In this document: in pieces, positions 1,712-4,414 of the stretch
Numbering within the stretch: position 1 is the first letter of the stretch
Layout: each line of letters begins with the position of its first letter
Source: an archaeon
Lineage (GTDB): Archaea; Iainarchaeota; Iainarchaeia; Iainarchaeales; CSSED10-239
Assembly: GCA_035387745.1 (NCBI GenBank)
Contig: DAOOON010000027.1
Coordinates: 1-8,544, forward strand
Reading direction: 5' to 3'
DNA length: 8,544 nt
Position numbers and translations under genes: made by a program
The notes under the pieces: generated by a model
Told to the model about the DNA's origin: nothing
Database searches by the model: none
What the model saw: only the letters and a program-made list of their open reading frames with translations

Positions 1712-4414
1712 TTATCTCTTTCTAAAGACTAAAAATAGAACAATAAGCACAACAATACCCAAAAGAATAGAGCCAGCATTCTTTAAAGAAAAGAAAGCAC
1801 TTAATGGCGATTTACCAGAATCTAAAGTAAGCTTTTCATTTGCTAACTCTTTACCTGTTGCCTTGTCTTTTATCTTTATGTCTAGAACTTTATCTTCTCT
1901 TAATCTTGTTGGAGAAACAATTTTATAGATTTTTGTAATCTCTTCGTTTGGAAGAAGATAAATATTTTTCTCACCATCAATCACATATGTGTCTGGTAGA
2001 CCAAAATCAACTACGCCTTCTTGAATATTATTTGTGTTGTTTCTTAAAGTTAAAGTGATGGTATAAGTTCTGTCTTGAGTTGCAGACTGCTTAGAACTAG
2101 ACACTATTGTTATCTCTGAAGTTGTTGGAGAAAGACTAATAGTTATTGGATATTTATTAACTAAAAGACTACCAGAATATAACTCTATATATGCTTGATA
2201 ATCAATTTTTTGAGCACTTTGTGGAATACTTAAATCTAAATCAACTTGCTTTGTTTGATGTGCCGAAAGAGTCACAGATATAGGAGAAGAACTAAAAGTG
2301 TTTGGAAGCCCTGCAAGTTTTAAAGTTACTTCTTTTGAAACCGTAAAACTATTATTTACATTTACTGAAATCTTTGGATTGTTTGATAATGGGCTAATAA
2401 AGGTTGGATAGGAAACTAAAGTTATTCTCTCTGATTCAGAAATATTGTTGATTATGTTTGTAAAGGTTGACTTTGAGGCGCAACCATTTAGATAAGCAGT
2501 ATAGGTTATGTTTGTTGGATTATTGAAATTTGAAAGAGTGATATTTTGTGAAAAATTATCATTGCCGCTTAAGAAAATAACACTTGGGTTTGTGGTTAAA
2601 CCGTTTGAAGTTATTTCAATTCTTCCGTTTTTGCTTGTATAATTTTTAAAAGAAACATTTATTGATTCTTGGCTATTGTTTACAGAAACTGTTGATGGCG
2701 CAATAATGTCAATACTACAACTTGAACCAGAGAAATTGGAGCCGTTGTTTGTTGAAGTGTTGTTTGTCGGGGTAGATCCTGAAGTTAAATTGTTAACAAT
2801 TATATCAAAATATTCTGTGCCAATATTTGAAGAACTACAGGTTTTGCCATCAGAAAATCTACCAGCAACTAAAAGCGTACCTCTTGCGTATTCTGTTGTA
2901 CTTACATTTATTGTTTTTAAATTAAAATTTAAAGAACTAGTGTCTCTTGCACTTATTGTTTTTGAATAGTTTAGATTGTTTATACTTACAAAACTTGAAT
3001 TGTCATTTAAACTTAGACTTGTTATTGTAAATGTTCTATCTGAGTTATTTAAAATATAGAAACCATCTTCTTCTGAAAAATAATCAGTACTGTTCTCTGC
3101 TTGACTAATATTCATGGTATAGAGATAAATATCGTCACAGCTTGTTTCATCGTCGTCATCATCATCAGAATCGTTGTCTCCATCGTCTTCAATTGTTACT
3201 GTGATTGTTGCTTTTCTTGTACATTCTCTTATCTCGTCAGAGCCATCAACAAAAGTGCCTTCTACTTCTAAGGTTAAGTATTTTGTTATATCATAATCAA
3301 AATCATCAGCATCAAGTTCTATTTCTAGATACTCGTAGTCATCTGAATCTATTTCGTCTGGCCAGTCTTCAATTGAAACATCTAGACCGTCTCTATCGCT
3401 TATTGTTATGTCATCAATCTCAAAGTCGTAATCATCTGAATCATTTTCTAGTTTTATTTTTCTTGTGCTTGTCTCGTCATCATTAATTGTAAAGCGGGTG
3501 TTTGTGATATCTAGGTCTGAACAACTAACGTCCTCTTCGTCATCATCGTCGTCATCATTGTCTTCTTCACTTATGTGATATTCTACTTCGTAAGTTTTTG
3601 TACAGATTGAAGAGTTTGGATATCTTGCTTTAACTGTAATTGTAAAAACAGAATCATAATCGTCACTTACTGAATCTGCTTCTATATCCATTCTTACTGT
3701 TCTTACTGAAAGATCAGGAACCTCGTCAGGATAATCTATATCATCAATATCTAGTTTTGCTGGATCGCTTGTATAGACATCAACAATCTCCAGATCCTCG
3801 TTTGCTTCGTTTTCTATATAGAAGCTATAGGTGTCTGATTCGCTTTCATCAAGATAGATATCTTGAGTTCCTGAAAGAACTATGTCTGAACAGTCAGGAG
3901 TTGTATTTTGTGGAAAATCAAAATCATCATCTGTTGGGGTGTCTTCTATAAAGTAATAATAAGGTGCGTTATTTACTGGATAAACATAAGCATAGCTGTA
4001 TGTGTTATAGTAATAACCAGTTGCCTCTGCATAAACCTTAACCACATAACCATAATAGTCAGGAGTTAGATAGAAAACATTTGGATAAACATACTCGTAA
4101 GGGGTTGAATAACTATAATAGGTTTGGCTTGGAACAGAATATAGGTAGGTTAGATTACCATAGGAATCAAGGCCATAAACCTTTGGAGAAACAACAACTG
4201 GAACATTTGAATAACCCGGCATTGCTTGAAGCCTTAATCTTAAACTAACATTATCATAATAGTTTCCATATTGAATATTTAGATACTCTTGGGAACTATC
4301 AGTATTTACATAATAATTAATTGCAAACGGATCTGCATAAACTCCAGAAATAACTATTGCAACTAAAAATAACAAACTAACCAAATATTCTTTTCTCATA
4401 ATATTTTTCTCCAT
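1712..4414 (-). CDS. Large secreted, C-terminally membrane-anchored modular surface (S-layer-like/adhesin) protein, probable glycoprotein, 900 aa
   Basis: The long ORF has a Sec-type signal peptide (MRKEYLVSLLFLVAIVISGVYA|DPF). It has a Tyr-rich N-terminal domain and four modules, each bracketed by a Cys pair (C175/C271, C298/C398, C426/C526, C566/C645). These eight are the only Cys in the protein. Other features are poly-Asp/Glu linkers, about 29 N-x-S/T sequons by my manual count, and a C-terminal TM helix followed by RKR. The start is ambiguous: ATG 4414 has no SD, while ATG 4399 (Met6) is preceded by GGAG 9 nt upstream and by TATA-like sequence about 25-32 nt upstream. Confidence 0.85.
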   Translation of the reverse strand: MEKNIMRKEYLVSLLFLVAIVISGVYADPFAINYYVNTDSSQEYLNIQYGNYYDNVSLRLRLQAMPGYSNVPVVVSPKVYGLDSYGNLTYLYSVPSQTYYSYSTPYEYVYPNVFYLTPDYYGYVVKVYAEATGYYYNTYSYAYVYPVNNAPYYYFIEDTPTDDDFDFPQNTTPDCSDIVLSGTQDIYLDESESDTYSFYIENEANEDLEIVDVYTSDPAKLDIDDIDYPDEVPDLSVRTVRMDIEADSVSDDYDSVFTITVKARYPNSSICTKTYEVEYHISEEDNDDDDDDEEDVSCSDLDITNTRFTINDDETSTRKIKLENDSDDYDFEIDDITISDRDGLDVSIEDWPDEIDSDDYEYLEIELDADDFDYDITKYLTLEVEGTFVDGSDEIRECTRKATITVTIEDDGDNDSDDDDDDETSCDDIYLYTMNISQAENSTDYFSEEDGFYILNNSDRTFTITSLSLNDNSSFVSINNLNYSKTISARDTSSLNFNLKTINVSTTEYARGTLLVAGRFSDGKTCSSSNIGTEYFDIIVNNLTSGSTPTNNTSTNNGSNFSGSSCSIDIIAPSTVSVNNSQESINVSFKNYTSKNGRIEITSNGLTTNPSVIFLSGNDNFSQNITLSNFNNPTNITYTAYLNGCASKSTFTNIINNISESERITLVSYPTFISPLSNNPKISVNVNNSFTVSKEVTLKLAGLPNTFSSSPISVTLSAHQTKQVDLDLSIPQSAQKIDYQAYIELYSGSLLVNKYPITISLSPTTSEITIVSSSKQSATQDRTYTITLTLRNNTNNIQEGVVDFGLPDTYVIDGEKNIYLLPNEEITKIYKIVSPTRLREDKVLDIKIKDKATGKELANEKLTLDSGKSPLSAFFSLKNAGSILLGIVVLIVLFLVFRKR
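1715..1819 (-). other. C-terminal tripartite anchor / candidate sorting signal: ...SGKSPLSAFFSLKNAGS + ILLGIVVLIVLFLVF + RKR-stop
   Basis: A polar motif, a ~15-residue hydrophobic helix and a basic cluster sit at the extreme C-terminus. This is the same architecture as the PGF-CTERM/PEP-CTERM class of signals recognised by archaeosortases and exosortases. Confidence 0.5.
3143..3190 (-). repeat. GAY/GAR trinucleotide-rich tract encoding acidic linker EDDGDNDSDDDDDDET
   Basis: The plus strand reads ...tcatcgtcgtcatcatcatcagaatcgttgtctccatcgtcttc. The tract lies between modules B and C. Confidence 0.8.
3527..3568 (-). repeat. GAY/GAR trinucleotide-rich tract encoding acidic linker EEDNDDDDDDEEDV
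   Basis: The plus strand reads tcctcttcgtcatcatcgtcgtcatcattgtcttcttc. The tract lies between Cys-bracketed modules A and B. Confidence 0.8.

Follow-up and report, generated by a model that had tools for sequence, protein, structure and literature searches.

We examined the C-terminal tail of a 900-amino-acid protein that is encoded in an 8,544-nucleotide stretch of DNA from an archaeon of the Iainarchaeota (contig DAOOON010000027.1 of assembly GCA_035387745.1). The whole of this stretch is called the window below. The protein ends in a short motif, a hydrophobic helix and a cluster of basic residues, and a gene for a small membrane enzyme of the archaeosortase family lies close by. By analogy with known sorting systems, we propose that this neighbouring minimal archaeosortase uses the tail as its sorting signal and that the two proteins form a dedicated enzyme-substrate pair in Iainarchaeota and Forterrea-type DPANN archaea. 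We put the probability of this reading at roughly 0.55. The features concerned are the following.

1712 to 4414, minus strand: gene of the putative substrate, 900 amino acids (open reading frame).
4334 to 4414, minus strand: Sec-type signal peptide MEKNIMRKEYLVSLLFLVAIVISGVYA, read from the sequence and followed by DP.
1784 to 1804, minus strand: signature motif LSAFFSL, residues 871 to 877, the proposed archaeosortase recognition and cleavage site (alignment and regular expression).
1769 to 1783, minus strand: polar spacer KNAGS, from the motif to the helix (translation).
1724 to 1768, minus strand: hydrophobic transmembrane helix ILLGIVVLIVLFLVF, 15 residues, mean Kyte-Doolittle value 3.6.
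1715 to 1723, minus strand: basic cluster RKR at the extreme C-terminus (translation).
1712 to 1714, minus strand: stop codon of the 900-amino-acid gene (translation).
6243 to 6797, minus strand: minimal archaeosortase/exosortase-family gene, 184 amino acids, a polytopic membrane protein and the putative cognate enzyme (TIGR04178).

The C-terminus of the 900-amino-acid protein reads ...PLSAFFSLKNAGS-ILLGIVVLIVLFLVF-RKR-stop, and the translation of window positions 1712 to 1825 on the minus strand is LDSGKSPLSAFFSLKNAGSILLGIVVLIVLFLVFRKR, followed by the stop. The first-pass annotation of this DNA had described a tripartite tail made of a polar segment, a hydrophobic helix of 15 to 16 residues and an Arg/Lys cluster before the stop. 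The translation confirmed this description, although the range given for it (1715 to 1819) covers 35 of the 37 residues quoted (SGKSP...RKR). The annotation had also likened the tail to exosortase and archaeosortase signals and had guessed that a recognition motif might lie within it. The motif, the helix and the basic tip bear out the likeness, and the stretch where the motif was guessed to lie does contain a conserved element, LSAFFSL, which is an instance of [LIMF][ST][GA]F[FL]x[LF].

In an AlphaFold2 model of the protein, the terminal helix spans residues 877 to 899. The predicted local distance difference test score (pLDDT) is below 50 across residues 871 to 879, the motif region directly ahead of the helix, and the motif segment therefore looks flexible. 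At the other end of the protein, a basic, hydrophobic and small-x-small layout typical of a secretion signal is common to all orthologues, and residues 8 to 22 form a helix in the model. Cleavage of the signal peptide would fall after VYA, as judged by reading the sequence rather than by a prediction tool. A Sec signal peptide and a tripartite tail are combined on this single protein.

To describe the conservation of the tail, we used about 40 orthologues (P0045 to P0069 among them) with identities of 30 to 93%, of which 24 full-length ones made up the alignment for column entropies. The element [LIMF][ST][GA]F[FL]x[LF] just ahead of the membrane helix is kept in all of the roughly 40 orthologues, while its flanks diverge. 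The variants include LSAFFSL, ISAFFTL, LSGFLTL, ITGFLTL, LTGFLTL, LSGFFTL, LTGFFSF, LTAFFTF, FTGFTIF and PTAFFNL. F874 is conserved at 96% in the full-length orthologues, and column entropy is 0.25 to 1.6 bits at residues 871 to 877, compared with 2 to 3 bits at the 13 preceding residues (858 to 870). Conservation of the motif beyond that of its flanks, as in a generic "-CTERM" signal, was found down to 30% identity. Among the last 60 positions, the most conserved residues lie in the extracellular motif and not in the helix. The polar spacer between the two is 5 to 8 residues long across the orthologues, with Asn879 conserved at 79% and Gly881 at 75%.

The motif regular expression gave 17 matches in 146,837 residues of open reading frames from all fetched loci, every one of them at the tail site of an orthologue. 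Because the motif is conserved in all orthologues found and the expression is specific to this site, the tail is more than a chance feature, and a chance origin was ruled out on these grounds. In the clade of the window protein, the tail has a constant length of 32 residues and ends in Arg or Lys residues. The Forterrea-type clade (L018 11821-14964, L020, L026, L027 and L028; P0068 and P0069) has a Lys/Glu-rich cytoplasmic tail of 55 to 100 residues after the helix. Proteins of the window's clade thus finish with motif, helix and basic cluster in this order, which is not literally true of the Forterrea clade. The earlier description, in which the basic cluster stands exactly at the C-terminus, is accordingly correct for the window's clade and not for the Forterrea clade.

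The sortase-like enzyme that the first-pass annotation had placed nearby proved to be real. The 184-amino-acid product of the gene at 6243 to 6797 scores 37.8 bits against the exosortase/archaeosortase signature TIGR04178, for which the cut-off is 23. Its score for the Pfam family EpsH (PF09721) is 13.2, compared with a cut-off of 25.7, and some homologues carry a precomputed PF09721 match. We found 37 homologues, at 46 to 100% identity, in metagenome-assembled genomes labelled as unclassified "archaeon" or as Diapherotrites. TIGR04178 was matched by 30 of 30 members of the enzyme family, and Cys97 (6507 to 6509), Asn136, Arg139 (6381 to 6383) and His159 (6321 to 6323) are invariant in the 30 aligned homologues. 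The enzyme therefore has both the signature and the conserved Cys, Arg and His residues of the family. ArtA, the archaeosortase of Haloferax volcanii, has a length of about 300 amino acids.

None of the 30 members reached the cut-off of a named subfamily (ArtA to ArtD, XrtM, XrtG, XrtH, XrtX, pacearchaeosortase and heimdallarchaeosortase). The window enzyme itself scored 29 of the 125 bits required for XrtM, 19 of 125 for ArtD, 17 of 103 for XrtG and 14 of 80 for pacearchaeosortase. Across the 30 enzymes, the models touched were XrtH (10 enzymes), ArtD (10), XrtM (8), XrtG (7), pacearchaeosortase (6) and ArtA (2), with best E-values between 1e-7 and 1e-3. A sequence search of the PDB with the sortase profile returned no solved relative. 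The species-representative genomes that contain the enzyme include Candidatus Forterrea multitransposorum, Candidatus Iainarchaeum and "Candidatus ainarchaeum" metagenome-assembled genomes, and the lineage of the enzyme-bearing genomes is Iainarchaeota/Diapherotrites within DPANN.

The sortase gene is uncalled in two assemblies of the Joint Genome Institute (JGI) (L011 7618-8172, also L012, corresponding to window 6243 to 6797). The enzyme is missing from some public annotations because the gene caller took an 80-amino-acid open reading frame on the opposite strand. The ATG of the sortase gene overlaps the stop codon of the gene for ribosomal protein S8e (ATGA, window 6794 to 6797; …GTTAAATGAAATCT…). 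In close relatives and in L033, the two genes overlap or abut, and in L031 they are separated by 42 nucleotides. As read from the sequence, the ATGA overlap suggests constitutive co-expression of the sortase with ribosomal protein S8e, and it implies a putative translational coupling of the sorting enzyme to a ribosomal protein gene.

In the window, the sortase gene lies 1.8 kb upstream of the 900-amino-acid gene. Co-occurrence was judged in 15 loci from GTDB genomes and in 3 more that were reached through the most divergent orthologues. In all 18 of these Iainarchaeota-type loci, each with enough sequence to judge, the sortase gene lies 0.6 to 1.8 kb upstream of an orthologue of 800 to 1,075 amino acids that bears a signal peptide, including the loci whose substrates are only 30 to 35% identical to the window protein.

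In the pathway that we propose, the 900-amino-acid protein would be exported via Sec by means of its N-terminal signal peptide. The C-terminal helix would hold the exported protein in the membrane for a time, with RKR on the cytoplasmic side, and the flexible [LI][ST][GA]F[FL][ST]L motif would thereby be placed at the outer membrane face. The membrane-embedded archaeosortase, with Cys97, Arg139 and His159, would then cleave at or next to the motif, and the new C-terminus would be transferred to a membrane lipid, on the model of ArtA and PGF-CTERM in Haloferax. The end state would be a beta-sandwich surface protein that is lipid-anchored and has lost its helix. If cleavage occurs near ...SPLS/A, the ILLGIVVLIVLFLVFRKR part would be missing from the mature protein. 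We infer that this enzyme acts on the tail, and likewise the cleavage site and the acceptor. ArtA is known to cleave and lipid-anchor PGF-CTERM proteins, including the S-layer glycoprotein; it also processes a tripartite signal that lies away from the C-terminus, and a genome with ArtA can hold just one substrate (PMC6098224).

The carrier has the character of a large surface protein. In the AlphaFold2 model, which was built on 24 orthologues and has a mean pLDDT of 78.7, about seven all-beta domains of the beta-sandwich type are separated by disordered acidic linkers. The protein has 26 N-x-S/T sequons and is 10% Asp (the G+C content of the window is 31%). No Pfam domain was found in it. When the model was compared with the PDB by Foldseek, the matches were generic strings of Ig/MG/ASH-type beta-sandwiches only, such as those of ciliary central-pair proteins and alpha-2-macroglobulins, with query-normalised TM-scores of 0.10 to 0.19. 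We regard it as the probable main surface protein, or S-layer-like protein, of these cells, and the term "S-layer protein" stays provisional because Foldseek gave no specific S-layer match.

We then scanned the tail of the window protein and those of 14 orthologues against NCBIfam 20.0 and Pfam at permissive thresholds. The PGF, PEF, PIP and VPXXXP motifs are absent from the window tail, and none of the scanned tails reached the cut-off of a named model (PGF-, PEF-, PIP-, VPXXXP-, Heimdall- or Loki-CTERM, or LPXTG), nor that of any other NCBIfam or Pfam -CTERM model, in agreement with the first-pass view that no named class fits. LPXTG_anchor gave 10 to 13 bits (best 13.4) against 15.9, with model positions 9 or 10 to 31 of 34 aligned and the LPXTG part unaligned. 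Heimdall-CTERM gave at best 14.7 bits against 24, the window match covering model positions 7 to 24 of 26, and PEF-CTERM at best 11.5 bits against 23. These three matches, the ones whose positions were inspected, consist of helix and basic positions alone and include no signature motif. Loki-CTERM was matched weakly, below its cut-off, by 2 of the 14 tails (best E 0.012). The PGF-CTERM model had no match among the 14 tails even at E<=10. The June 2026 release of NCBIfam contains no model for either the sortase or the substrate, and the searchable literature yielded no account of such a signal in the Iainarchaeota, Diapherotrites or Forterrea-type DPANN lineage. Since the motif keeps a Gly/Ala-Phe core, a distant relationship of the PGF type is possible, and the motif may be a proline-less relative of PGF.

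To find other carriers of the tail, we searched several collections. With a 33-position tail profile, a HMMER search of 1.84 billion representative proteins returned 4 matches at E<=0.001, all of them orthologues or their fragments; this is a weak negative, as so short a profile is blind to weaker tails. A degenerate DNA pattern, which described the fixed-length tail of the window's clade with one type of stop codon, was found at 14 places in JGI metagenomes, and these were 7 orthologues and 7 chance matches with internal stops. The use of hmmsearch and the regular expression on 806 open reading frames from 428 kb of related loci recovered orthologues only. A word-index search of a 5.8-billion-protein collection with the tail alignment missed even the orthologues, and the matches listed were unrelated hydrophobic peptides. 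The first-pass annotation had named, as its test for a new class, a motif that recurs on several signal-peptide proteins. No such recurrence was seen in the searches made, in which every carrier was an orthologue, no complete carrier proteome having been scanned. A tail shared by many substrates is typical of such systems and not obligatory, since genomes with ArtA have from 1 to 52 substrates (PMC6098224).

Several observations weigh against the proposed pair. The searches revealed no unrelated protein with the motif, and so the argument normally made for a transferable sorting domain does not apply here. The order of S8e, sortase, 128-amino-acid gene, large protein and L3/L4 operon is syntenic throughout the group, so that the 18 loci represent a single inherited arrangement rather than independent observations. 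The sortase and substrate genes do not form one operon, because a gene on the opposite strand separates them. The motif also lacks proline, which most named exosortase and archaeosortase signals contain. In addition, 6 of 8 Forterrea-clade tails end in [KR][QE][IV]T[LF]x[EDQ][LV][DE] (for example, PRQITLGELD and KQITLKQLDEAKN). Since the long tail ends in a conserved motif of its own, this suggests that the C-terminal part has a use in the Forterrea clade and is not simply discarded.

The tail might also be an ordinary, permanent C-terminal membrane anchor. The motif would then be structural, for example for stalk packing or subunit contact, and the sortase would act elsewhere or be adjacent through inherited synteny. 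A tail carried by orthologues only fits such an anchor, adjacency adds little where the whole neighbourhood is syntenic, and the long cytoplasmic tails of the Forterrea clade, most with their conserved end motif, make most sense if the helix and the tail are retained. SlaB of Sulfolobus offers a precedent, as this S-layer subunit is known to be anchored by a simple transmembrane segment (PMC6098224). Against an anchor, the conservation peak of the last 60 positions falls in the extracellular motif and not in the helix, and sortase-type signals have precisely this arrangement of motif, helix and basic tip. Moreover, because its catalytic-type residues are invariant, the sortase must have a substrate, and the 428 kb of related sequence contained no other candidate that combines a signal peptide, a C-terminal helix and the motif. 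Like a protein with a SlaB-type anchor, the window protein is a surface protein held by one C-terminal helix. Unlike in SlaB, the helix follows an extracellular motif that is strongly conserved, and the protein always occurs with a sortase gene, whereas the Sulfolobales are without archaeosortases (PMC6098224). We consider a permanent anchor the chief rival of the proposed pair, possible but on the whole unlikely.

The tail might instead mark a genome-wide sorting class, found on several unrelated secreted proteins per genome in the manner of PGF-CTERM or PEP-CTERM. Most named classes behave in this way (PMC6098224), and diverged carriers scoring below about 35 bits could exist in proteomes that were not scanned completely. 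However, apart from chance matches, the HMMER profile, the DNA pattern and the scan of 806 open reading frames gave orthologues only, and the adjoining pilin-like surface proteins are without the tail. We regard a genome-wide class as improbable, and we prefer the dedicated pair because the searches for other carriers gave orthologues only.

A more elaborate form of the dedicated pair is speculative, and we would give it little weight. The enzymes would make up an archaeosortase subfamily that has no name yet, whose signal, [LI][ST][GA]F[FL][ST]L, is without proline and which serves only the one major surface protein of Iainarchaeota-type DPANN archaea. The signal would be internal in the Forterrea clade, where cleavage would release the helix with a cytoplasmic tail fragment, so that processing might be coupled to a cytoplasmic partner or might leave a functional membrane stub.

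Finally, it is very unlikely that the tail is a diverged member of the PGF-CTERM/ArtA system in which Ser or Thr replaces Pro, since the G/A-F core directly upstream of the hydrophobic segment and the resemblance of the carrier to surface or S-layer proteins of several domains, such as the ArtA substrate of Haloferax (PMC6098224), are set against 0 of 14 tails matching the PGF-CTERM model, an ArtA model that touched fewer of the 30 sortases (2, best E 1.2e-4) than did XrtH, ArtD, XrtM, XrtG or pacearchaeosortase, an enzyme much shorter than ArtA and a polar spacer of 5 to 8 residues between motif and helix.

The proposed pair nevertheless has much in common with ArtA and PGF-CTERM of H. volcanii. 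In both systems the substrate is a Sec-exported multi-domain surface protein with a Gly-Phe-core motif, a transmembrane helix and a basic cluster, and the enzyme, a polytopic membrane protein, belongs to the exosortase/archaeosortase family and has conserved Cys and Arg residues. Unlike the ArtA system, the window system has a proline-less motif, [LI][ST][GA]F[FL][ST]L, with a polar spacer before the helix; its tail does not match TIGR04126, and its enzyme, of about 184 amino acids, does not pass TIGR04125. It also belongs to DPANN archaea and not to Euryarchaeota.

In size, the enzyme resembles those of ArtD/PIP-CTERM, XrtM, XrtG, XrtH, pacearchaeosortase, heimdallarchaeosortase/Heimdall-CTERM and Loki-CTERM, which are small (models of 150 to 190 positions) and belong to one lineage each. 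Its partial matches to several of these short-form, lineage-specific archaeosortases are weak, however, and far below the curated cut-offs. The logic of motif, helix and basic tail is also that of Sortase A and LPXTG in Gram-positive bacteria, with a transpeptidase chemistry of the Cys/Arg/His type being assumed (PMC6098224). Unlike Sortase A, the enzyme has an unrelated fold, there is no LPXTG, and Archaea have no peptidoglycan acceptor.

If the proposal is correct, the pair would represent a lineage-specific DPANN archaeosortase class whose recognition motif is without the usual proline and which apparently has a single substrate. The genes, whose public labels are "hypothetical protein" for the 900-amino-acid substrate and "exosortase/archaeosortase family protein" for the 184-amino-acid enzyme, could then be named by annotators. 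The probable main surface protein of ultrasmall, host-dependent cells would have been identified, with lipid anchoring suggested for it. Such anchoring is of interest because DPANN cells presumably rely on the lipids of their hosts. A 184-amino-acid enzyme with a single adjacent substrate would also be a convenient model for archaeosortase specificity. Because this kind of system is already well known, and lineage-specific classes have been named (Heimdall-CTERM, Loki-CTERM and pacearchaeosortase), the gain would be incremental and the surprise moderate.

Between the sortase and the putative substrate lies a gene for a 128-amino-acid coiled-coil protein (window 4607 to 4993, plus strand), which has only weak Pfam matches of the coiled-coil type. 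A gene for 127 to 131 amino acids occupies the same place in the same orientation in nearly all related loci. Two genes on the minus strand encode Lys-rich proteins of 262 amino acids (5444 to 6232) and 146 amino acids (5002 to 5442), neither with a Pfam or NCBIfam family. The 262-amino-acid protein (MPKPKI…KGNPITPLPEKNKVIFxxVIPTLRKIQ) recurs after the sortase in L014, L016, L021 and L024 and does not occur in the Forterrea clade.

Directly downstream of the 900-amino-acid gene are four large genes, for proteins of 536 to 910 amino acids that begin with signal peptides of class III (type IV pilin-like), namely MSKKGQVALEVLVVI, RTAQVAIEVLVII, SKGQSSLEILIIF and KKAQTALEILVIF. The coordinates for these unusually large "pilins" are window positions 5 to 1615 on the minus strand (the mechanical open reading frame extends to 1657) and also positions 12800 to 20484 of L011. 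Forterrea-type loci lack the cluster at the equivalent place and have the ribosomal L3/L4 operon there, immediately after the large gene. The pilin-like proteins were considered as alternative sortase substrates and were ruled out, as they have N-terminal class III signal peptides, polar C-termini and no C-terminal helix. The 536-amino-acid member contains three Cys-rich acidic repeats, CGNGxIExGEQCDGEDL...C (window about 1000 to 1400 and 300 to 450, minus strand), with a weak match to the NCBIfam model "myxo_disulf_rpt" (TIGR02232; 16.9 bits, the cut-off being 20.8).

Farther out, a gene for a Bro-N domain protein (L011 3399-4277) is inserted in the source contig between the genes for ribosomal protein L12 and the Hef helicase. 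The Logan contig L001 lacks this gene and is identical in all other respects. The Bro-N family is typical of viruses and mobile elements. The window is part of a 57-kb contig from an anaerobic digester.

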